A DNA stretch of 64,000 bases from Candidatus Yanofskybacteria bacterium RIFCSPHIGHO2_01_FULL_41_26 (GCA_001794055.1 MGJB01000015.1:4264-68263), one strand, 5' to 3'; numbered from the stretch's first letter, positions 1 through 58,858 are shown. Translations and numbers: made by a program. The notes: generated from the letters alone by a model not told the origin.

Positions 1-227
1 TGTCTTAACTGAAAATATCGATGCTTAACATGAAGTCTGTTTGAGCCCGGCTTTTTGGTAGCACCCCTTAATTTAGGAAATAGCTGCCAAAGACGGTTGT
101 CTCCGCCCCTAAAACCCTGTTTGATAGATGCTCCTGCTCGTCCTTTTTGGCCCTTTGTTCCGTGGCCGGAAAAAGTTCCTCTTTTTCCACCTCGTCCGAC
201 GCGTTTAGCCGACTTCCTTTTTGTATT

Positions 228-11224: not shown

Positions 11225-12427
11225 TTATTTATTAATTTTGGTCACGGCTCCGGCGCCAACAGTCTTACCACCTTCTCTGATGGCAAATCTCTGCTTTTCT
11301 TCCATGGCGATAGGGGCAATCAATTGAACTTTCAAATTTGCAGTATCTCCCGGCATGACCATTTCAGTTCCTTCCGGCAATAAGACTTCTCCGGTAACAT
11401 CGGTGGTTCGGAAATAGAATTGAGGTTTGTAACCCTTGAAGAATGGGGTATGTCTGCCACCTTCTTCTTTTGTTAAAACATATATTTCTGCCTCAAAATC
11501 GGTATGCGGGGTAATCGTACCCGGCTTGGCAAGCACTTGGCCTCTTTCTATGTCTTCTTTCTTGGTACCTCTCAAAAGTATTCCGGCATTGTCTCCGGCC
11601 AAACCTTCGTCTAATTGCTTATTAAACATTTCGATACCGGTGACAACAGTCTTCGCTGTCGGTTTAATTCCAACTATTTCAATTTCTTCGTTTAATTTAA
11701 CTTTCCCTCTTTCAATTCTTCCGGTTACAACAGTGCCTCTTCCTTCAATTGAAAAGATGTCTTCAATAGGCATAAGGAAGGGTTTATCGGTATCTCGGAC
11801 CGGATCCGGAAAGAAAGTATCCATTGCATTCATCAATTCCTTGATCGGCTTGGCATATTGATCATCTTTTGATTTAGATTCAAGGGCTTTCAATCCAGAA
11901 CCTCTGATAATCGGGGTTTTATCTCCGGGGAACTGATATTTATTCAAGAGCTCTCTGATTTCGGCTTCAACCAAATCAACCATTTCCGGATCATCAACCA
12001 TATCCACCTTGTTGAGGAATACGATTATATTAGGAACGCCAACCTGTCTGGCAAGCAAAATGTGCTCTCTTGTTTGAGGCATCGGGCCATCAGTGGCAGC
12101 GACAACCAATACAGCTCCATCCATCTGGGCAGCACCCGTGATCATATTTTTAATGTAATCAGCGTGGCCAGGAGCATCAACATGAGCGTAGTGGCGCTTG
12201 GGTGTCTCGTACTCGGAGTGGTGTAAGGCAATTGTAATACCTCTGGCTTTTTCTTCAGGAGCATTATCAATCTGATCTACTCCTTCCTCTCGGGCAGAAT
12301 AACCCTCGTCCTTCATTAAATTTAATACATGCAAAATACCCGCCGTTAGCGTAGTTTTACCGTGGTCAACGTGACCGATTGTGCCGACATTCAAGTGCAG
12401 CTTGTTTCTTTCAAATTTGCCTGCCAT
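11225..12427 (-). CDS. tuf: Elongation factor Tu
   Basis: 400 aa; [22 protein letters not shown] GTPase motifs. Confidence 0.98.
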
Positions 12428-48808: not shown

Positions 48809-50446
48809 ATGAGAGCTCTTTTGTGGGCAACGGCAATAGGCCTTGTGATCATATTTTTCTTTGGATCTCAAATCCACTATTTGACCGAATATTTAACGAC
48901 GAATCAATTTGTGATTCTTGTCAGTACCTGGTTTTGGTGGCTTAGTGAGATATCGCTTCAGATATTTTTTGCGGTAGTAGTACTTGTTATAGCCATGGTA
49001 ATTTTTAGGCGTCTAACGCAAAGATCAGAAATGGTTAAAGTTATCCCGAGAAAAAATGCCGACAAAACAAAAACTTCCATTTTTTCTAAAACCAAAGAGA
49101 TTCCTAAGCCGACTGTGCGTTTTAAAGACGTAGCTGGAGTAGACGAAGCAAAAGAAGAACTTATTGAAGTGGTTGAATTTCTTAAGAATCCTCAAAAATT
49201 CGGCCGCTTGGGAGGTAGAATTCCTAAAGGTGTTTTATTGGTCGGCCCTCCGGGCGTAGGCAAAACTCTTCTTGCCAAAGCGGTGGCAGGAGAAGCCGAC
49301 AAACCATTTTATTACTATACGGGCTCTGACTTTGTTGAACAATATGTCGGCGTAGGCGCATCCAGAGCCAGGAGTTTGTTTTTAGAAGCGGAAAAAAATG
49401 CCCCTTGCATTGTTTTTATAGACGAAATCGATGCCCTTGGTAAACGAACTCTATCTGCCTCAACTGGTGGAGACAGAGAATATGATCAAACAATAAATAG
49501 TTTTCTTTCTGAAATGGATGGCTTTGAAGCCAATCGAGGCATAATGATAATTGGAGCGACAAATCGTCAAGATAATTTAGATGATGCCTTTCTAAGGCCT
49601 GGCCGATTTGACCGGATAGTCCAAGTCAATCCTCCAGACATAAAAGGACGCGAAGATATTCTTAAGGTTCATACCCGGCCTCCGGTTATTCTTTCTTCTA
49701 GCGTAAACCTTAAAAATATTGCCAAAATAACTGCCGGTTTTTCCGGAGCCGATCTGGCCAATCTCGTTAACGAAGCGGCAATAAATGCCGTCAAAAAAGA
49801 TAAGAATGCTATTGAAACTAACGATTTCGAAGAAGCAAAAGAGAAAATTAGGTTAGGCAAAGAAAATAAGTCGTTGGCCTCTGTTCTTAGCGAGGAAGAA
49901 AAATGGATCACAGCTGTTCATGAATCTGGCCATGGAATAATTGCATCTGTTTTACCGGGAGCCGACCCTCTATACAAGATCTCCATTATTCCCAGAGGAA
50001 AAGCTCTCGGTATTACCGCTCAAACCCAAGAAAGAGATAAATACAACCTAAAGAAAAGCTATTTGGAAGAGTTGATCTGTATTCTTCTTGGAGGAAGAGC
50101 GGCTGAAGAAATTATACTAGGCGAAAAAGAAATTACTGCCGGCGCTCAAAATGATTTTGAACGCGCAACCGAAATTGCAATTCACATGGTTTGTGAGTTT
50201 GGGATGAGCAAGCTTGGCCCGGTTAATTATAGAGTAGAATTCGGGTTTAACAATTCAGGTATAGTGAGCGAACAAACCAAAAGAGACATCGGCAGCACCA
50301 TTAAAGAAATCCTGGAAAATGCATACCAAAAAGTTAAAGAAATCATTGATAAAAATAAACCAAAAGTTTTAAAAATAGCCAAAGCGCTGATGGAAAAAGA
50401 GACCCTGGAAAGAGAAGAGATAGAAACATTAATCAAAGAGTCCTAA
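48809..50446 (+). CDS. ftsH: ATP-dependent zinc metalloprotease FtsH (short form)
   Basis: 2 N-terminal TM, Walker A GPPGVGKT, HESGH zinc motif. Confidence 0.93.
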   Translation: MRALLWATAIGLVIIFFFGSQIHYLTEYLTTNQFVILVSTWFWWLSEISLQIFFAVVVLVIAMVIFRRLTQRSEMVKVIPRKNADKTKTSIFSKTKEIPKPTVRFKDVAGVDEAKEELIEVVEFLKNPQKFGRLGGRIPKGVLLVGPPGVGKTLLAKAVAGEADKPFYYYTGSDFVEQYVGVGASRARSLFLEAEKNAPCIVFIDEIDALGKRTLSASTGGDREYDQTINSFLSEMDGFEANRGIMIIGATNRQDNLDDAFLRPGRFDRIVQVNPPDIKGREDILKVHTRPPVILSSSVNLKNIAKITAGFSGADLANLVNEAAINAVKKDKNAIETNDFEEAKEKIRLGKENKSLASVLSEEEKWITAVHESGHGIIASVLPGADPLYKISIIPRGKALGITAQTQERDKYNLKKSYLEELICILLGGRAAEEIILGEKEITAGAQNDFERATEIAIHMVCEFGMSKLGPVNYRVEFGFNNSGIVSEQTKRDIGSTIKEILENAYQKVKEIIDKNKPKVLKIAKALMEKETLEREEIETLIKES

Positions 50447-50484: not shown

Positions 50485-50560
50485 TGGAGCCGCCTCCCAG
50501 ATTTGCACTGGGGACCTTCTCGTTACGAGTGAGATGCTCTACTGGCTGAGCTAAGGCGGC
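50485..50560 (-). tRNA. tRNA-Thr (anticodon CGU)
   Basis: Manual fold: acceptor GCCGCCU/AGGCGGC, D arm GCUC/GAGC, anticodon loop CUCGUAA, T arm; one A-C mismatch in anticodon stem; T-loop UGCAAAU atypical. Confidence 0.7.
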
Positions 50561-50623
50561 ATTGATTATATTTAGGTAATTATATCAAAAAATTCTTTTT
50601 TTACAACGCATTTTTTGATATTT

Positions 50624-50660
50624 TGAGCGGGATAGTGGATGACCTTAGAACCTATTGGCA
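50624..50660. repeat. ~36-bp direct repeat, copy 1 (hairpin with conserved loop ttagaacctattggca)
   Basis: gagcgggatagtggatgaccttagaacctattggca vs copy at 50986. Confidence 0.7.
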
Positions 50661-50744
50661 AACCACATCCAAGTTATTTTCTATGCCGATTATGACACCA
50701 GAAAGTGCCAAACTAACCGATAATACAACGAGTGAAAATTAGTT

Positions 50745-50954
50745 TTATAAAGACTCGAGTTTCCCTTTTAGGTCATTAAGTACTCCAATAAGTCTCCGTT
50801 TGACTTCTTCTTGGACATCTCTCGATAACCCTCGGTTTTTTACATAATTAACTAAAGACTCAGGCTGCAAAAAACTTTCTTGAGATCCGACTAGAGATTT
50901 CATAATTTCATCTGCCTCAGATAATTGATGGCTTTCTAAGTTTTCTTTTGTCAT
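50745..50954 (-). CDS. Hypothetical small protein (69 aa) flanked by direct repeats
   Basis: ORF only. Confidence 0.4.
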   Translation of the reverse strand: MTKENLESHQLSEADEIMKSLVGSQESFLQPESLVNYVKNRGLSRDVQEEVKRRLIGVLNDLKGKLESL

Positions 50955-50985
50955 ATTATTAGTATATACTTTCCATCTTATTATA

Positions 50986-51021
50986 TCAAGTCTTGGAGCG
51001 GGATAGTGAATGACGTTAGAA
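50986..51021. repeat. ~36-bp direct repeat, copy 2
   Basis: gagcgggatagtgaatgacgttagaacctattggca; stem covaries (ggatg/catcc vs atgac/gtcat). Confidence 0.7.
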
Positions 51022-51057
51022 CCTATTGGCAGTCATCTAATGATTTGTTTTATATAC

Positions 51058-51450
51058 CTAACTTGCCAGGGAATCAGTGTTAACTATAGCTGGCATTAAG
51101 CCCACCGATATGCCAGTGCTAAACTGAGTAACGGCTGAAGAGACAAAACTGCCTACCACGAGCCTTACTTGCGGTTGTGGTATCGCAACTTCACTAAAAG
51201 CTGTAACTGCTAAATCGGGTTTATCCATAGCCCCAAAAGAAGCTAACTGGTTATTTGCATTCTCCATTATTGGGTTGGTTATGCTATCAACCTGTCCTTT
51301 TCCAAAAATAATCATCCCCACTATTCCTAAAATTTTTCCTACATTTTTTCTATTCATTACACTAAATTTATCATAAAAAAGAGTAAAAATCAATATCGTG
51401 TCCTCGTTTCGGTTCTGATAATCAAATTTTGTCTCATAGTACTCTTGCAC
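51058..51450 (-). CDS. Small hydrophobic protein (130 aa), candidate second effector
   Basis: Hydrophobic segments ILGIVGMIIFG and LVVGSFVSSAVTQFSTGISVGLMPAIV; immediately downstream of cyclase B. Confidence 0.45.
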   Translation of the reverse strand: MQEYYETKFDYQNRNEDTILIFTLFYDKFSVMNRKNVGKILGIVGMIIFGKGQVDSITNPIMENANNQLASFGAMDKPDLAVTAFSEVAIPQPQVRLVVGSFVSSAVTQFSTGISVGLMPAIVNTDSLAS

Positions 51451-51518
51451 AAAAATTTAATGTGGACTGTCAACAATGCATGATGGACAGTTTTTAAGAG
51501 CCCATGCACAACATATTT

Positions 51519-52289
51519 CTATATGGGCAACATAAATTTATTTTTATAGATATTTCTATCTTTCCAAGTAAACTTATTCCACATCGGCATTTTTATAAAA
51601 AAGTTCCCACTTCTAAATTTAATAGATTTATTTATTCTTTTGTAAACTTCTTCGGAAATACAAACCCTCAAGTCTTCTGTTGTATTAGACAAAAATCCTA
51701 AAACCGATGGCTTAGCCAGAGAAGATAGTTTTACTGCATAATTGGTGGCGTTTCCTACCCAGACCAAATCATTGTTATTTTCTCCTCGTATACCACCACG
51801 AACAACCAAAATTTTACCAACATCAACTCCTATTCCAATATCAAAATTCAATCCGAATAGTTTCTTATTTTCTCTAAAATATCCCTGAATTCTTGGCTTT
51901 AGAATTTCTTTTACAAACCAAGACATCTGTAGTCCAGCCCTGACAGCATTTGTGCATTTACTACTACCTATAAAAACTACAAGAACCCCATCTCCATTGA
52001 AACTTCGTAGTTCCCCCCCATTCCCTCTTGCTATTTGAGCAACTCCCCAAAGGAATGATTTATACATTTTTACTGCCGTTTCTCTGCGAAATGCATCAAC
52101 AATTTTAGTGGATTCTTTAATATCTATGAAAAGCATTGCAAGGTCAAGTTCCTTTCCATAATTTCCAAGTTGAATATCATCTATTTCGGGTATAACATAA
52201 CCAGAAGCAATCTCGTATTTATCTGTAAAGCAATTTCTTATCTGCTTTTCTAGTTCTTCCTTAGTAACCATATGAAAAAAAATAAACAA
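51519..52289 (-). CDS. Class III nucleotidyl cyclase (cyclase B), Pycsar PycC-like
   Basis: Cyclase homology domain motifs: LFIDIKEST (metal Asp), RSFNGDGVLVVF (second Asp), DLVWVGNATNYAVKLSS (transition-state Asn). Confidence 0.75.
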   Translation of the reverse strand: MFIFFHMVTKEELEKQIRNCFTDKYEIASGYVIPEIDDIQLGNYGKELDLAMLFIDIKESTKIVDAFRRETAVKMYKSFLWGVAQIARGNGGELRSFNGDGVLVVFIGSSKCTNAVRAGLQMSWFVKEILKPRIQGYFRENKKLFGLNFDIGIGVDVGKILVVRGGIRGENNNDLVWVGNATNYAVKLSSLAKPSVLGFLSNTTEDLRVCISEEVYKRINKSIKFRSGNFFIKMPMWNKFTWKDRNIYKNKFMLPI

Positions 52290-52767
52290 TATAGCCTAAC
52301 AATATCAGGGCGCTTCCTGACATAAACAGAATAACGGCATATTTAAAGCGAGTGTGTTTTTCAGAGGCTATTTTAGAATTAATATAAACCTGGTTCAATA
52401 ATTCGTTCTCGTATTTGTTTTCTGTTAAATCGTCTATCTTTTTCTGATAATCAGACTTAGACATATTATTAATACTGCCGAAATATGTTACAGACAAAGA
52501 TGATTGCGGGGCGTTTAGTTTAGGACTTACGGCCAATATAGACAAAACTATACTTATTAGAAAAAAAATAATCCCAGTCAGGGATATAAAGAAAAGGGAG
52601 AGGTCGCATATTAGATAGGTTTCCTCTATTGCTCTTAAAATATGTGGGGCGATAATAGTTAGTATGATTCCTTGAAATGCCAAAAATATACTAACCTTGT
52701 GGTCTGCCGAATTAATCCATCCCTGTATTCTATTCAGTGTATCTTTTAGAAATTCAGTTTTATTCAT
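52261..52767 (-). CDS. Multi-TM small protein, Pycsar PycTM-like effector candidate
   Basis: 168 aa with 3 hydrophobic helices; translationally coupled (4-nt overlap) to upstream cyclase and overlapping downstream cyclase. Confidence 0.6.
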   Translation of the reverse strand: MNKTEFLKDTLNRIQGWINSADHKVSIFLAFQGIILTIIAPHILRAIEETYLICDLSLFFISLTGIIFFLISIVLSILAVSPKLNAPQSSLSVTYFGSINNMSKSDYQKKIDDLTENKYENELLNQVYINSKIASEKHTRFKYAVILFMSGSALILLGYIVYFFSYGY

Positions 52768-53591
52768 TCATCTAATTTTAATATTTCTTGACAAAAGTTC
52801 TTTCCATGTATCTCGCACCATCTAACAGGAGTCATTCTGTACGCCTTGCTGAAATCAAAATTCTTGTCTTGTTGTACATTCATAGTATCCCAAGCCTTCC
52901 TTTTTACGTCATTAGGACATCCACAAGTATGAAGAACTGATTCAGAGTTATCTTTTAGGAATACATCGAATACCCTTTCCGAAACTATCAAATCATTTTC
53001 TCCTCCGATTGAAGCAAGTTTAGCAGCCATATTAACTGGCTTTCCAGCCCAAACCTCATTGCTTTTATCTGTTTTACCCTCCATTACTCGAATCCCGATT
53101 CGCTTTACCAGGACAGTTTTTCTGTCCATTCCTATATGACAACTTAATTTTTCCATATTTTCTGGCAATACCACTTCGTCAGCCATAACAAAACCTACTA
53201 TGGTTTTGAAGGTAATTGCTGATGCCAAGGCATGATATCCACGGTTACTGTTAAAAAGCCCGAATGCTCCATCGCCTCGCACGTCAATATAAGAGGCTCC
53301 GAATTCATTTAAGACTTTCACAGCAGTACCAGTAAAATATTGGTATATGCTTGCTGTAAATTTATCTTGTTTCTGTGCGCTCAGTTGAGTAGAGTTCTTC
53401 ATGTCTATATAAACACAGACGACATCATTAAGTCTCCACCAAGTATTAGATTCGAGAGGTACAGTGTCAGTTAGAGGAATTCTATCCTTCTGCTCAACCT
53501 GCTCTCCTTGCCTAAACCTTTCTGTGGTCGAATCTATAATATTCAGAACGCTCTCAAGGAATTGATTATTTCTATTTATACTCATGGGCAA
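52764..53591 (-). CDS. Class III nucleotidyl cyclase (cyclase A) with Cys/His-containing C-terminal tail, PycC-like
   Basis: VYIDMKNST, YIDVRGDGAFGLF, EVWAGKPVNMAAKLAS cyclase motifs; C-term HTCGC...WCEIH...FC. Confidence 0.75.
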   Translation of the reverse strand: MPMSINRNNQFLESVLNIIDSTTERFRQGEQVEQKDRIPLTDTVPLESNTWWRLNDVVCVYIDMKNSTQLSAQKQDKFTASIYQYFTGTAVKVLNEFGASYIDVRGDGAFGLFNSNRGYHALASAITFKTIVGFVMADEVVLPENMEKLSCHIGMDRKTVLVKRIGIRVMEGKTDKSNEVWAGKPVNMAAKLASIGGENDLIVSERVFDVFLKDNSESVLHTCGCPNDVKRKAWDTMNVQQDKNFDFSKAYRMTPVRWCEIHGKNFCQEILKLDE

Positions 53592-53678
53592 GAATATAGC
53601 AAAAACTGGCTGAAATAGCCAGTCTTATTATCAGAAATTAAAAAGCGGATTGATATTATCGCACCGCACTTTATTCGA

Positions 53679-53876
53679 CTAAATTTGATAGCCGAATAAT
53701 CTCCAGGTAGTTTCACTATTCGGATGACATTTCATCTGATGCACTTGAATAAGTGACCTTTTGACGTTCAGATGGCAAGACGGACATCTCAAGCAGCAGG
53801 ATTCTCTGGACCTAAAACTATTTGTGTTGTGATTATTACAATCGCATTGATGAGTACAGTCTCGTGAGTGTTTCAT
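53679..53876 (-). CDS. Doubtful Cys/His/Asn-rich small ORF (65 aa)
   Basis: Start abuts stop of upstream ORF; composition unusual; may be non-coding. Confidence 0.2.
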   Translation of the reverse strand: MKHSRDCTHQCDCNNHNTNSFRSRESCCLRCPSCHLNVKRSLIQVHQMKCHPNSETTWRLFGYQI

Positions 53877-54136
53877 TATACCTCCGATTTCATTGAACTT
53901 TCTTTCCAGAGAGATTCTTTTACCACATTTCCTTGTTCGTCTTTGAAAGCCACAAATATTAGTACGCCAGACCTTACACTGGCAACTCCTTGGACAAATT
54001 CAGTGAATACACGTCCATCGGGAAGAGTATGGCTGTAGAGTTGGATAGAAGGATTGGAGTCAGACCTTCCTAAATGATTTCTCTTGCAAGCCTTTGCCAT
54101 AAGTTCACATGCCCAAAGGTTGTGGGACACCATCAT
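53876..54136 (-). CDS. Hypothetical protein (86 aa)
   Basis: Part of 3-4 gene overlapping operon; no domain recognised. Confidence 0.45.
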   Translation of the reverse strand: MMVSHNLWACELMAKACKRNHLGRSDSNPSIQLYSHTLPDGRVFTEFVQGVASVRSGVLIFVAFKDEQGNVVKESLWKESSMKSEV

Positions 54137-54405
54137 GATTGGTGGCTCCTTTTAATATCAATACCAGAAACAACACAAACAGCTTGCATTGCAAATTTTA
54201 CTGGCTCTGGAACTACGAAACCATAGGGTGTAGCGTCCTTTGGCGGTTCGGCAACTTTTTCTATATTTAATCCGCTCCCATAACCTGCATAACTAGCAGT
54301 ACCAGTAATGAGCATTGCCCCATCATTCAGGACAAGACCCATACCGCTGTCGTTATTAAAAACAAACACATCGCCAGGCTTGAAGTTGGTTCTTCTTTTT
54401 GCCAT
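54133..54405 (-). CDS. Hypothetical protein (90 aa)
   Basis: ATGA overlap with neighbours. Confidence 0.45.
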   Translation of the reverse strand: MAKRRTNFKPGDVFVFNNDSGMGLVLNDGAMLITGTASYAGYGSGLNIEKVAEPPKDATPYGFVVPEPVKFAMQAVCVVSGIDIKRSHQS

Positions 54406-54408
54406 TCT

Positions 54409-54810
54409 TTACTCCTTCTCTTCCTCAAGATAGATATCCAGGTGATGTCCTCCAGCACAAAGTTTGATTTTCAGAACCTTGGTCTCTTTTTCAGACCATT
54501 GCACTGTGAGATGAAGTCTTTCGACCCCAGCCTCGGTTATTTTGGCTCTAACTCTTTGACAGAATACCTCTTGGTCAGGAAGTGGCATATGCGCAAATCG
54601 AGAAAAAACTTCCAAGTTATCAAAGAACAGTTCAGTACCCGTATCGACTGACGGAATACGGTAAGGTGGATTGCTTTTCTCTCCAGAGAAAGCCCTAGCC
54701 ATATTCTGTTCTCGCCATCCATCAGGAGATTCATAACCTTCAAAAAGGTCTTTCAAGTTTCCATGAACAGCATCCCTATAAGCAATGACTGGAACAGCGA
54801 CTTTTTGCAC
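54409..54810 (-). CDS. Hypothetical protein (133 aa)
   Basis: First gene of overlapping operon; higher GC than cyclase block. Confidence 0.45.
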   Translation of the reverse strand: MQKVAVPVIAYRDAVHGNLKDLFEGYESPDGWREQNMARAFSGEKSNPPYRIPSVDTGTELFFDNLEVFSRFAHMPLPDQEVFCQRVRAKITEAGVERLHLTVQWSEKETKVLKIKLCAGGHHLDIYLEEEKE

Positions 54811-55017
54811 GTTTTACTCCTTGAATACTGCTACAACATACTACCATAGATTAGAGTTTTTGCAAGTTTGAAAACCGCATTGGTCAATACTTTTTATGGA
54901 AATTACCTGTATTTTTAGTGTAATTTATATGTAAAATCGAGTAATTTGATGTTTAAATAAAGCAATTTCGAGGCATCAGAGAATATTAAGGATATATTAT
55001 AACCAACCATCTGGGCA

Positions 55018-55371
55018 TCAGAAAAAGTTGTTCCAGATTGCTTTGACTATATAAAGTCCAATAAGCAGAGTCGACATCATAAGAAGATAAAGTCCCAAAG
55101 ACAAAACACCTCTTTTATCATCTGCCAGCGTTGCCCCTTGTAATTTTCCAACAATGATAAGGGCTAGACTGACGATTGCCACAATGTATAAAGTAAGACC
55201 TACCTCTGGTGAATACATGTTGCTGTTGCAACTGGAAAAGGGCTTTATGCCTCTAGGAACCATAAAACCCGCTACCAGGTGCAACCTTTCGGTCGCAATA
55301 TGTGGGTTTCCCCACATAACGCAGTGCATGCCCTGATAACGGGATTTATATGCACTGCGATTTGATGCCAT
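55018..55371 (-). CDS. Hypothetical membrane protein (117 aa) flanked by ~30-nt direct repeats
   Basis: Repeats attataaccaa...tctgggcatcagaaaa at 54996-55026 and 55419-55472. Confidence 0.45.
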   Translation of the reverse strand: MASNRSAYKSRYQGMHCVMWGNPHIATERLHLVAGFMVPRGIKPFSSCNSNMYSPEVGLTLYIVAIVSLALIIVGKLQGATLADDKRGVLSLGLYLLMMSTLLIGLYIVKAIWNNFF

Positions 55372-56451
55372 GCCCCACAGTATCTTGTCGGGTTGTAGGC
55401 GGTTAAATTGTTAAATACATTATAACCAAATAGGGTAATTTTTCAATGAGTGGAATCTGGGCATCAGAAAATAAAATACTTGAACTTATTGCCCAAAAAT
55501 GTTATAATGTAAGAGTAGGCTTCTGGGAATACTCCCAAGGGGTCTGTGAGAACTCAAAAACGATAGTAGGTTGCACTAGCCCATCAGAGTTTCATTGGTT
55601 AAGCACTGATTGCTAGTATTATTTCTCCCATTGGGTTAGGCAAAAATCCAATGAAACTCCCCAGTGAGAGGAATAATGAAAGTAATCAGTGTTTTTATTT
55701 GGTTCAGCAAGGGTTCTGATGAAGATAAATTAATATTCCAAAATAGAGCAATCGAGCAGGGCAACAGTTCAACTACTGACCCTGGAAACTAAGGAGCATA
55801 AGACCTTACTACAATCCTTAGGGCGTGTTTTATAGGGTTTTGAGCAGAGAGGACTACAGATGAGAAACTCTCAAAGGCGGTATCGGGCACCTATCGCCAA
55901 GACTTGAAATAAAAGGCGGCAAAATGGAATGCTGGTTAGCCAGTAATTCAAATTAGCAAACTTATATAGTTACTAAAGCGAATCTGCAGTAGGCACACAC
56001 GACATTAAAGAAGGAGTGATGTGTGGGGCAGGATAAGGAGGAAACTACAAAGCATCTGATTATATTATTTAATTATTTTAATTCTGCATGACGACAGTAT
56101 AGGATTGGCATCTGGAATGTGGGCTTTTTTAAGAGCTGGACATGCCCGAGTCGCTTCGCAGGCTCCAGCCCTGAAGCGAAGCCCTACGAGGGCAGTCAGC
56201 GAGGACGTGTCCGAGATGAGACAGCCCGCCACATGTAGAGGGCGGCTTTTATATCACGACTCAACCTTATGCTGACGACATACTACCATTTGGAGTTTAA
56301 CTACTAGAACAAAACCTATCATAGGTTGCGAAATGTATGCCCAATATGGCTACTACTATAAACCTCGTATAAACAAAGAAAATAAGCGCATTTTTACTGA
56401 GTTTCTTCCGTAATATTGGGTTGTCATCTATTTGAATAGTTTCTTGGTGAG

Positions 56452-56688
56452 TTGTTGGTTGTTAGAATTAAGGTACCGCTGGAAGGCGGTTTTATGTTAT
56501 CAAAAAACGCATTACAAGAATTCAAGATTGTTTGGAAAGAAGAATTTGGCGAAGACTTGCCAGATAACTTAGCCCTTGAGGAAGGGGTCAATCTTCTAAC
56601 TCTACTCGACCAGATTTATCGTCCCGTCAAAAAAGAATGGATGGATGAAAAGGACAAGAGTGATTTTCCAGATTTACCCGCCCCTTAA
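56452..56688 (+). CDS. Small protein upstream of integrase (possible recombination directionality factor; speculative)
   Basis: 78 aa acidic ORF in integrase orientation. Confidence 0.3.
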   Translation: MLVVRIKVPLEGGFMLSKNALQEFKIVWKEEFGEDLPDNLALEEGVNLLTLLDQIYRPVKKEWMDEKDKSDFPDLPAP

Positions 56689-56794
56689 AAGAGTTTTGGC
56701 TGTATTTAGTTAACTTTAATTTTAAGCCAATTTTCCTTTGTATTCTCAGGTTATTTAAGGTAAAATGATAGTATAAAGCGAGTGGCAACCTAAC

Positions 56795-58540
56795 GTGAAA
56801 AACACATTAAACAATAAAGAAATAACCTACTTTCTATATTGCCGAAAGTCTACAGATGAAAAAGATAGACAGGTTTTAAGTTTAGACTCTCAAGAATCAG
56901 AGTCTCTAAAGAGATTTACCGACTTGAAGATTAAAAAATTGCCCAGAGAATCTGTGAGTGCCTTTGAGCCATACAAGCGACCAGTTTTTGCGGATATGAT
57001 TGAGCGCATTAAAAAAGGAGAAGCCCAAGGTATTGTTGCCTGGCATCCTGACCGACTTTCCCGAAATCCTATTGAGGCTGCCCAAATCATCTATTTACTG
57101 GACATAGGAGTCTTAAAGGATTTGAAATTTTGTAATTATTACTTTGACAATTCACCAGAAGGTAAAATGATGCTCCAAATTACTTTATCTCAATCAAAAT
57201 ACTCTTCAGATAAGTTAAGCGGAGATGTTAAGAGGGGTATAGATAAAAAGGTTGACCTTGGGTGGCGACCAGGATTAGCCCCATTAGGATATCTCAACAG
57301 CAAAACCCAAGCCAAAGGAGAACAGTTTGTCTATAATGACCCTTTGAGATTCGAGACTGTTAAGAAAGTCCTCAAGACAATGCTCACTGGTAATTTTACT
57401 GCTCCGAAGCTACTCAAGTATGCTAATGACGAACTTTGCTTGCGTCTTCCAGCGACTAAAAAGCGCCCCGAAAGAAAGTTAAGAATCAGCCACCTTTATC
57501 GAATTCTAACTAACCCATTTTACTATGGCTGGTATGAGTGGGTAGCAGGTAGTGGTAACTGGGTTCAAGGCAAGCACGAGGCAATGATTACAGAAGCAGA
57601 ATTTGACCGCATACAATTTCTGTTGGGCAGAAAAGGTAGACCACGCCCCAAAACCCATAAATTCGCTTTTACGGGCATTATGAAGTGCTCTTGTGGGGCA
57701 GGCATCACTGCGGAGGAAAAGTTTAAGAGGCAAAAGAATGGAAATACCCACCACTATATCTACTATCATTGTACCAGAAAAGTTAATCCCGAATGTATTG
57801 AAAAAGCAGTTGAATTAAAGGAATTAACAAGGCAGGTGAATGTCATTCTTGGTAGATTTACAATATCTGACCGTTTTCAGAAATGGGCGTTAAAGTATCT
57901 GCACGAATTAAGAAAAAAGGAAGCTACCGTCAGAGAGCAATCTATTAGTGCCAAGCATCGAGAGTACGAGAGGATAACGACTCAACTAGATAATTTAGTC
58001 TTAAAATATACATCGCCAGACAACGAGGATGGAAGGATTTTAAGCAATGAAGAATACGTGCCACTCCGTTCTAGGCTACTCAAATATAAATCGGGGTTAG
58101 CCTCAGAATTAGCCCAGCAAGATAAGAAAATTGAGGAATGGGTAGAGTTAACCGAACGAACTTTCAACTTTGCCCGCTACGCCAAGATTTGGTTCGCCAA
58201 AGGAGACTTGGAAACCAAGAAAGCCATATTTTCGTGTTTGGGTTCGGACTTCTTACTAAAAGACCGAAAAGTCGCAGTTAGTATGAGAAAACCTATCAGT
58301 TTTATCTTTGACGGACTTCCGAAAATACAAACTGAACTACAAAGGTTAGAACCTCTTGGAAATGAGATAAACATTAGGGATATTGAAATTTTCTCTCAAC
58401 AATTTCCCATCATGAGCGGGATACGAGAATCGGACTCGTGTCTCAACCTTGGGAAGGTCGCGTATTACCACTATACGAATCCCGCGTTAATACCCAAGCA
58501 CATACCAAAACCATTTTTTATAGTTTGGCATTTTGCTTAA
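56795..58540 (+). CDS. Large serine recombinase (integrase)
   Basis: N-terminal resolvase catalytic motif YCRKSTDEKDRQVLSLDSQE, recombinase domain, Cys-rich zinc-ribbon region (CSCGAG...YYHCTRK). Confidence 0.85.
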   Translation: MKNTLNNKEITYFLYCRKSTDEKDRQVLSLDSQESESLKRFTDLKIKKLPRESVSAFEPYKRPVFADMIERIKKGEAQGIVAWHPDRLSRNPIEAAQIIYLLDIGVLKDLKFCNYYFDNSPEGKMMLQITLSQSKYSSDKLSGDVKRGIDKKVDLGWRPGLAPLGYLNSKTQAKGEQFVYNDPLRFETVKKVLKTMLTGNFTAPKLLKYANDELCLRLPATKKRPERKLRISHLYRILTNPFYYGWYEWVAGSGNWVQGKHEAMITEAEFDRIQFLLGRKGRPRPKTHKFAFTGIMKCSCGAGITAEEKFKRQKNGNTHHYIYYHCTRKVNPECIEKAVELKELTRQVNVILGRFTISDRFQKWALKYLHELRKKEATVREQSISAKHREYERITTQLDNLVLKYTSPDNEDGRILSNEEYVPLRSRLLKYKSGLASELAQQDKKIEEWVELTERTFNFARYAKIWFAKGDLETKKAIFSCLGSDFLLKDRKVAVSMRKPISFIFDGLPKIQTELQRLEPLGNEINIRDIEIFSQQFPIMSGIRESDSCLNLGKVAYYHYTNPALIPKHIPKPFFIVWHFA

Positions 58541-58858
58541 CAGCTCTTCAAAATTTATTGGATCAGATTCTTTTTTCACATTCTTATCTCTATATACAAA
58601 AACCACTTCCTCGCCTTGGACTTTATAATTTAACTTCAAACGGGCTTCTTTTTCAAGGAAAGCCGGAGTTTGAAAATAATTCAAAAATTTATTAAGATAG
58701 TCGGTATCGTTTTGAACTTCTTTTATCTTGGTTTCGATATTTTTAACTTCGCCATCAATCATGCTCCTTTGAGAACCAATATTTATCGAGGAAAGGGTCA
58801 GCCACAAAACAAGAATACCGGACAAAACAGTAAATATTTTGGAATTTAGAAATTTCAT
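58487..58858 (-). CDS. ftsB: Septum formation initiator FtsB/DivIC family
   Basis: N-terminal TM, coiled coil, KEARLKLNYKVQGEEVVFV conserved motif. Confidence 0.7.
   Translation of the reverse strand: MKFLNSKIFTVLSGILVLWLTLSSINIGSQRSMIDGEVKNIETKIKEVQNDTDYLNKFLNYFQTPAFLEKEARLKLNYKVQGEEVVFVYRDKNVKKESDPINFEELLSKMPNYKKWFWYVLGY

Follow-up and report, generated by a model that had tools for sequence, protein, structure and literature searches.

A large serine recombinase with its attachment site inside its own gene: a probable integrative element at a tRNA-Gly(CCC) gene of Candidatus Yanofskybacteria

The 64,000-nt stretch of DNA analysed here, from Candidatus Yanofskybacteria bacterium RIFCSPHIGHO2_01_FULL_41_26 and referred to below as the window, carries an island between the genes for tRNA-Thr(cgt) and tRNA-Gly(CCC), at the right end of which lies the gene of a large serine recombinase (LSR). 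Between the two tRNA genes, two junction repeats around a small open reading frame (ORF) are followed by a Pycsar anti-phage system, four overlapping small ORFs, a LOOT RNA gene with a small membrane-protein ORF, an ORF-free stretch, a small acidic ORF and the recombinase; ftsH and a DivIC/FtsB-like gene flank the whole (Table 1). The entire analysis is based on metagenome assemblies. Loci of relatives were retrieved from a one-genome-per-species collection through the FtsB-like protein, and four genomes, with 67-77% identity, cover the junction. All four (L017, L018, L019 and L021) share the order LepA-FtsB-tRNA-Gly(ccc)-gap-tRNA-Thr(cgt)-FtsH-RF-FtsE-FtsX-tRNA-Gln, the gap between the two tRNA genes being 58 nt in L018, 966 nt in L021, 1,316 nt in L017 and 1,439 nt in L019 vs 7,853 nt in the window. 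This comparison with relatives lacking the insertion had been proposed in a first-pass annotation of the window, which read the region as an integrative island with a large serine recombinase; the empty site of L018, with its 58-nt spacer, and the attachment (att) repeats described below support that reading. FtsH counts 545 aa in the window and 595-602 aa in L019 and L021, for which either a shorter N-terminus or a miscalled start codon may apply.

A 10-nt core, GAGCGGGATA, is found at three sites, the last of which is the 3' end of tRNA-Gly, while the first lies directly beyond the spacer adjoining tRNA-Thr. The element thus delimited spans 50635-58413. According to these junctions and to the comparison with relatives, the 3' acceptor end of tRNA-Gly(CCC) was probably the site at which an element of 7.4-7.8 kb was integrated by its own LSR. 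The first-pass annotation had instead bounded the island by tRNA-Thr, implying an element that entered at this tRNA and spans 50561-58540. Indeed, tRNA-Thr is the nearest gene on the left. However, the 64 nt beside it form a hairpin kept in five of five genomes (the window and the four relatives), so that 50561-50624 is ancestral spacer and belongs to the flank rather than to the island. Moreover, the direct repeats correspond to the tRNA-Gly 3' end rather than to that of tRNA-Thr, no repeat of the tRNA-Thr 3' end is present at the right edge, and throughout the recombinase family the LSR gene is convergent with its target tRNA. Entry at tRNA-Thr is next to impossible on these grounds, and this tRNA, merely the next gene past an intact spacer, was rejected as the target. 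The right boundary moves as well, from 58540 to about 58413-58423, because the tRNA-Gly(ccc) gene, which had been overlooked, lies on the opposite strand within the final 127 nt of the 581-aa recombinase ORF. The overlap reported between the recombinase 3' end and ftsB does exist, but it reflects an ORF that crosses the junction and then runs antisense through tRNA-Gly into the 3' end of ftsB.

Table 1. Features of the locus and predicted junctions; positions are counted from the first nucleotide of the window
Feature	Position	Strand	Remarks
ftsH	48809-50446		Pfam AAA + M41
tRNA-Thr(cgt)	50485-50560		ARAGORN + Rfam
Ancestral tRNA-Gly/tRNA-Thr spacer, hairpin, B arm of attB	50561-50624	.	AAATGCGTTGTAAAAA.CGCATTTTTTG conserved beside tRNA-Thr in L017, L018, L019, L021; inverted repeat I14
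Outer distal junction (attL type)	50625-50742	+	core GAGCGGGATA 50625-50634, P' arm, in-frame LSR tail remnant SGIVDDLRTYWQTTSKLFSMPIM..., stop 50740-50742
69-aa ORF in the 371-nt scar between the two distal att copies	50745-50954	-	no family match
Inner distal junction	50996-51083	+	core GAGCGGGATA 50996-51005, P' arm with GTTAGAACCT 51015-51024, intact consensus tail SGIVNDVRTYWQSSNDLFYIPNLPGNQC followed by a stop
130-aa ORF, cargo	51058-51450	-	no match
Pycsar anti-phage system	51519-53591	-	PycC 52764-53591, PycTM effector 52261-52767, second PycC 51519-52289
Four overlapping small ORFs (133, 90, 86, 65 aa), cargo	53679-54810	-	no Pfam, PADLOC or PHROG match
66-aa protein, probably with two transmembrane segments, downstream of LOOT	55018-55218	-	starts at an internal Met of the "117-aa ORF"
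LOOT RNA gene (RF03000)	55267-55446	-	RNA 55281-55401; promoter TTGAAA-16-TATAAT 55446-55419; terminator hairpin 55280-55267
ORF-free stretch, ~0.95 kb	55480-56450	+	divergent promoter 55480-55508 (extended -10)
64-aa acidic two-helix protein, LSR partner	56494-56688	+	candidate recombination directionality factor or regulator
LSR ORF, 581 aa	56795-58540	+	conserved protein ends ...FPIMSG (~58420); later codons are antisense tRNA-Gly and ftsB 3' end
T-loop-like motifs in the LSR ORF	58242-58354	+	degenerate GTTCGGACT 58242-58250 (-172); GTTAGAACCT 58345-58354 (-69)
tRNA-Gly(CCC), integration target	58414-58485	-	proximal core GAGCGGGATA at 58414-58423 = 3' acceptor end; ARAGORN + Rfam
DivIC/FtsB-like gene	58487-58858		
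Predicted circle junction			...TTTCCCATCATGAGCGGGATAGTGAATGACGTTAGAACC
Predicted empty-site junction			...CGCATTTTTTGATATTTTGAGCGGGATACGAGAATCGGAC

Two distal copies of the junction lie at the left end of the island, within a 39-nt direct repeat (50622-50660 and 50993-51031, 92% identical; zero chance matches expected) that surrounds the 69-aa ORF. This repeat had been described as the border of a single-gene cassette. The repeat stands, but the 371 nt between the two copies are the scar of an earlier insertion, outside the present element, and thus a case of accretion. The inner copy is likely the partner of the present element. It retains the consensus tail of the recombinase gene, which is decayed in the outer copy together with the T-loop-like motif (CTTAGAACC); the same holds for the tails of locus L024, which also carries two distal copies, and fits with the newest element being the one that adjoins the tRNA. 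In the window and in related islands, paired junctions are identical over no more than 7-11 nt, as suits a serine recombinase. A dyad about the core was also considered but, with TCC/GGA alone being shared, was found unconvincing.

The same architecture recurs elsewhere, seven other islands of 5-10 kb having this kind of distal tail. In L034, L038, L041, L024, L063 and L092, whose targets are Gly, Ser and Leu tRNAs, a core matching the end of the local tRNA and continued by an in-frame tail is located 5.4-10.2 kb upstream of the LSR gene. In the relative L017, the tRNA-Gly(CCC) site used in the window holds a scar without a recombinase gene. On contig L103, a tail-bearing recombinase is followed by two further core-plus-tail scars, an arrangement that would be expected if composites excised through an outer scar. 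Between two att scars of this contig (6937-9220) lies a cassette with Y1 (IS200-like) and IS1595 DDE transposases; insertion sequences ride inside such elements. In L034, a group I intron (RF00028, 76 bits) is located at 11657-11888, about 1 kb past the target tRNA-Gly.

The distal junctions also reveal where the element's own attachment site lies. The tRNA 3' end is complementary to the last LSR codons, ATG AGC GGG (M-S-G), and both distal copies continue the recombinase frame past the core (SGIV.DVRTYWQ..LFYIPNL), the inner one in agreement with the family consensus. Among homologues, three classes of C-terminus follow the conserved ...RLEPL...FP.[LM]SG: a majority stop at SG; in a second class the ORF continues as antisense tRNA (IRESNSCLNLG...); a few end in the tail [IL]V.DVRTYWQ....F.IP.L, as in the window's distal copies, with no tRNA nearby. 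Because the distal in-frame tails match the C-termini of these tRNA-free homologues, attP falls within the final codons of the LSR gene, from which integration detaches a tail of ~25-35 aa. Hence, recombination in the 7-10-nt core parts the LSR body, which stays beside the tRNA, from a tail of ~25-35 codons at the island's far end.

This raises the question of whether the tail has any role as a peptide. The tail codons for V-R-T are always GTT-(A/C)GA-ACC, which points to a constraint at the DNA level, whereas all four Pro codons occur at the invariant Pro of the F[YF]IP.L motif further downstream, a sign of constraint at the protein level; as far as codon usage tells, the tail region appears to be under both. 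Alternatively, the ORF may simply run on through the P' arm, its conservation reflecting DNA recognition only, so that integrated and excised enzymes would be equivalent. This is a real possibility, although not the favoured one. It is supported by the V-R-T codons, which show no variation at any of their three positions, by the fact that most integrated copies stop at SG and are thus tail-less, and by the AlphaFold2 (AF2) model of the homologue P0031, in which the last ~75 residues, tail included, are of low confidence. However, the motif [LF]F[YF][IV]P.[LF] lies 40-60 nt past the core, beyond a normal half-site of ~25 bp, and at least 15 independent tails preserve it while differing in synonymous codons (CCT, CCC, CCG or CCA for Pro).

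At the DNA level, the V-R-T codons form a T-loop-like 9-mer, GTT[A/C]GAACC, of which the form GGTTCGAACC is palindromic. The window's version, GTTAGAACCT, has just two exact copies in the 64 kb. Inside the ORF the motif keeps a fixed position, -69 to -67 from the tRNA end, where it reads as RLEP or as VRT depending on the subfamily, i.e., in two frames, and it recurs at +19 in the tail; in tail-bearing loci the two copies are precisely 88 nt apart. At -172, a further copy coincides with the G-S-N codons of CLGS.L, with GGT in 49/63, TCG in 57/63 and NAC in 63/63 sequences, while adjoining codons vary freely. Three motifs of the GGTTCGAACC type are thus spread over the final ~200 nt of LSR gene plus tail, with spacings of 103 and 88 nt, as illustrated by L102 (11117/11220/11308) and L103 (4448/4551/4639). 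Judged by these codons, the three motifs seem to be maintained by codon choice and not by protein sequence.

The motif also connects attP with the target. It occupies +19..27 in the P' arm, and the complement of the tRNA T-loop, TTCGAACC, lies at +14..22 in the B' arm, i.e., 5 bp nearer the core. When matches were summed over nine junction pairs, a register of +5 was the best (70/153 matches vs 12-57 for other shifts). In the A118 integrase, the motif bound by the zinc-ribbon domain covers bp 16-24 of the half-site in attP and bp 11-19 in attB (PMC3783163). The +5 offset is consistent with this rule and would place the predicted crossover centre inside the shared core. By analogy, the zinc-ribbon domain would read the T-loop sequence (TTCGAACC) in attB and its T-loop-like copy, 5 bp further out, in attP, which would explain the use of many tRNAs by one family.

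The enzyme itself was described earlier as a 581-aa recombinase preceded by a small acidic ORF, and this description is borne out by its Resolvase, Recombinase and zinc-ribbon domains. The catalytic domain matches PF00239 (Resolvase, E 2.9e-17), with Y15, R17, K18, S19, R87 and R90 invariant among 33 sequences. PF07508 (Recombinase) is matched with E 2.4e-08 (34.6 bits vs a cut-off of 21.1), and the C-terminal domain of A118 integrase (4kis/6dnw) with E 2e-06. The score for the PF13408 zinc ribbon is slightly under the cut-off (22.3 vs 25.3 bits), yet C298, C300, C326 and C334 are invariant. In line with this, the AF2 model of P0031 displays catalytic and recombinase domains, a zinc ribbon (beta-ribbon) and a long coiled coil, with long helices at 358-405 and 417-468. 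From these features, the enzyme has the sequence hallmarks of large serine recombinases and probably works like the integrase module of phages of that type. Its small acidic partner, of ~62 aa in the family, precedes the LSR gene, in the same orientation, in 61/75 loci. In the window it counts 64 aa and is modelled by AF2 as a two-helix hairpin with a predicted local distance difference test (pLDDT) score of 80; it had no family match in Pfam and no fold match with E <1. Being the only other conserved gene of these elements, it is a natural candidate for the directionality factor, and would act in excision.

At least 2,898 homologues of the LSR (E 1e-10 or better, among 8,000 candidates scored) were found, the named ones being all from Parcubacteria. 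Eighty metagenome loci were examined, 72 after removal of duplicates. In 46 of these 72 the end of the ORF overlaps the 3' end of a convergent tRNA on the opposite strand, the targets being 16 isoacceptors for Gly, Ser, Asn, Leu, Trp, Gln, Val, Glu, Arg and His; in eight loci the tail is present and the tRNA absent. No description of tRNA-targeting LSRs, of attP inside an LSR gene or of serine recombinases of the Candidate Phyla Radiation (CPR) was found in the literature searched, and the large variant of serine-recombinase elements to which the island of the window belongs is apparently undescribed.

Taken together, these data suggest a mechanism in which the LSR would insert the element at the acceptor end of tRNA-Gly(CCC) and leave the tRNA intact. 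With the crossover placed in the 7-10-nt core, the LSR body would stay by the tRNA while the tail would land at the far end of the island; the circular form would then make a tail-bearing enzyme, the integrated form a tail-less one, and the small partner would serve as excision factor. A bolder version takes attP-in-gene as a directionality switch, the tail-bearing LSR of the circle integrating and the tail-less LSR excising with the help of the 62-aa partner. The zinc-ribbon domain would find accessory sites in the motifs at -172, -69 and +19, which would build a res-like, higher-order attP; the T-loop would be a universal anchor, and retargeting to any tRNA would require a change in the acceptor-stem core alone, as encoded by the enzyme's own last codons. 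As a whole, this version is quite unlikely.

Several observations weigh against integration as outlined above or against parts of it. The predicted central dinucleotide of Gly-type sites could be palindromic (CG or GC), an atypical arrangement among LSRs; the standard attP model of ~50 bp does not account for the motifs at -69 and -172; and a zinc-ribbon-domain motif is recognisable in one half-site per att site, the P and B half-sites being without it. The tail of a tail-bearing homologue is unstructured in its AF2 model (pLDDT <50), so that a protein function of the tail stays a candidate only. The contigs with a native tail could be tandem arrays or assembly joins instead of excised forms; terminal overlaps indicating circularity were looked for in them and none was found. 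Contigs identical to the window occur across several Rifle aquifer metagenomes, the source being a Candidatus Yanofskybacteria-like CPR bacterium, and neither an empty site of the same species nor a circular contig of the element was found. All 16 Rifle contigs carry the island with 99.9-100% identity, which provides no evidence of present-day mobility. The island might therefore be fixed and immobile, with an LSR that is inactive or kept for another role and att repeats that are relics. The lack of polymorphism among the Rifle contigs and the 40 junk codons carried by the integrated ORF are compatible with this, but the LSR is full-length with every invariant catalytic and zinc residue present, and the inner distal tail is intact and agrees with the consensus, making a fixed island rather unlikely. 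Several independent Rifle assemblies break just upstream of the LSR or the small ORF, at window positions 56004 (L007/L008), 56354 (L009), 56547-56551 (L004/L005) and 56789 (L010), and two of these differ by 2 single-nucleotide polymorphisms; the breaks may stem from strain variants that share the recombinase and differ in cargo.

Apart from the conserved backbone, which is the LSR and its ~62-aa partner, the element consists of exchangeable cargo. The Pycsar system, the four-gene operon and the ORF-free stretch have no homologues in the 80 related loci and hence count as cargo, and LOOT is the sole cargo of the window common to related elements. The AT-rich Pycsar block noted earlier is real (GC 0.31-0.35): a PycC cyclase adjoins a PycTM effector, the arrangement by which Pycsar is recognised, with PADLOC E-values of 4.8e-97 for PycC, 4.1e-42 for PycTM and 1.2e-73 for the second PycC, and a Pfam PycTM match of 3.8e-18. 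Two different PycC (best PADLOC models PDLC00763 and PDLC02367) flank the single PycTM in overlapping ORFs, and may form a heteromeric cyclase. Next to it, the GC-richer operon of four overlapping genes was likewise recovered, on the minus strand (GC about 0.42-0.43). Its 133-aa protein belongs to a family of 54 representative clusters in 1.8 billion proteins, all unannotated, and its 65-aa ORF is Cys-rich; given its position, the operon may be a candidate novel defence or accessory module.

The second cassette of the first-pass annotation keeps its flanking repeats, which are shorter than the first pair (17 nt exact at 55009 and 55455, plus ATTATAACCAA), but not its single gene. It is a module of LOOT RNA and a small membrane protein, the N-terminal part of the supposed 117-aa ORF (55018-55371) being the LOOT gene. 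The covariance model of LOOT is matched over its full length (1-121) with 66.5 bits vs a gathering score of 46.4 (E 7.6e-11). Other copies occur in L022 (1133-1259), L024 (8840-8956), L027 (24-145) and L043 (1-98), in elements of the closest LSR subfamily. The full-length copies (window, L022, L024 and L027) have a promoter-like region and a conserved terminator (ACCYGTGGYGGGYTTTT), and the window, L022, L024 and L043 have a co-oriented ORF for a small membrane protein downstream of LOOT, the L027 contig ending before any ORF is visible. LOOT could be a leader/attenuator or a toxin-antitoxin-like stabilisation module rather than a free small RNA. The direct repeat that flanks this module (ATTATAACCAA + ATCTGGGCATCAGAAAA, at 54990-55025 and 55415-55471) carries in each copy a -10-like TATAAT on the minus strand, and looks like a duplicated promoter segment. 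Beyond it, the reported 1.08 kb without ORFs was confirmed, no ORF of at least 60 aa being present in 55372-56451. The stretch shows a modest folding signal, with fold z-scores of -3.3 (+ strand) and -2.6 (- strand), a hairpin of ~95 nt near 55600-55700 and a 3' domain rich in GC that closes with a further hairpin at ~56225-56250. It possibly gives a non-coding transcript, and had no Rfam match, LOOT being the sole one.

The island might also be a prophage in decay or a phage satellite, for which the LSR is just a tool and transfer relies on a helper phage. The small size of these elements (5-10 kb), the tRNA site and the failure to detect replication or transfer genes among the island ORFs (Pfam, PADLOC, PHROG) are in line with this. 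However, the island proteins tested gave only five PHROG matches, all to families of unknown function (the second cyclase with three and PycTM with two), virion and morphogenesis families being absent. No LSR relatives and no P' arm were found in 2.9 million IMG/VR contigs, and the cargo of related elements comprises defence or conflict genes (restriction-modification (RM), GmrSD, AAA_13, SUKH/LHH and DUF4238). A phage origin of this kind is therefore very unlikely.

Large serine integrases are the main tools for the insertion of large DNA. The family described here would be, with at least 2,898 proteins, a natural clade marked by systematic use of tRNA 3' ends, at least 16 isoacceptors being seen. 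Its apparent use of a constant anchor, the T-loop, together with a variable core points to a way of retargeting, and the C-terminus of the enzyme would depend on the state of integration. In addition, a recombinase and a 62-aa protein make up a simple vehicle that would move defence systems such as Pycsar among the very small CPR genomes, and the orphan LOOT RNA gains a genomic home. Large serine integrases are regarded as avoiding tRNA genes (PMC7192596). Their use of such genes was called unreported in 2020, with 14/297 predicted (PMC7192596), and a large LSR survey makes no mention of tRNA (PMC10083194).

Among the closest known systems are the phage-type large serine integrases (A118/LI, phiC31, Bxb1 and SPbeta), which share the resolvase, recombinase and zinc-ribbon domains and the coiled coil, a very short attP/attB identity and the position of the recombinase gene beside attP. 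Small directionality factors exist for some of them, e.g., TP901-1 Orf7 of 64 aa. The 5-bp offset of their zinc-ribbon motif between attP and attB half-sites (PMC3783163) may also have a counterpart here. Unlike here, these integrases mostly hit protein-coding genes and have attP outside the integrase ORF, whereas the present element uses tRNA genes, carries attP inside the ORF with extra T-loop-like motifs at -69 and -172, and is minimal and devoid of phage genes. The archaeal integrases of SSV1 type (type I) resemble it in having attP within the integrase gene, a tRNA target and a gene partitioned on integration; here, attP in the ORF is seen in the in-frame tails at the distal junctions and in the tRNA-free homologues. 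SSV1-type enzymes are tyrosine recombinases with long identity segments, and their gene is cut into two large parts, while here a serine recombinase loses only its last ~25-35 codons. Integration-dependent immunity in the mycobacteriophages BPs and Brujita, reportedly described by Broussard and colleagues in 2013, involves a tyrosine integrase and an attP in the 3' end of the repressor gene, so that free and integrated proteins differ in their C-termini. The consequence for the C-termini is the same here, but the gene split is that of the recombinase itself and not of the repressor. The small serine recombinases of the phiRSM group target tRNA-Ser. As here, a serine recombinase is the site-specific integrase of a small element (PMC7192596); unlike here, these are S-Core (resolvase-like) enzymes without recombinase or zinc-ribbon domains, and their elements are inoviruses. 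Finally, the element recalls the tRNA islands of tyrosine integrases in its insertion at a tRNA 3' end with regeneration of the tRNA, an integrase gene by the tRNA, tandem scars and defence cargo, but none of the island ORFs matches Phage_integrase (Pfam), the tyrosine integrase family, and the repeat is 7-11 nt vs the tens of nt typical of those islands.

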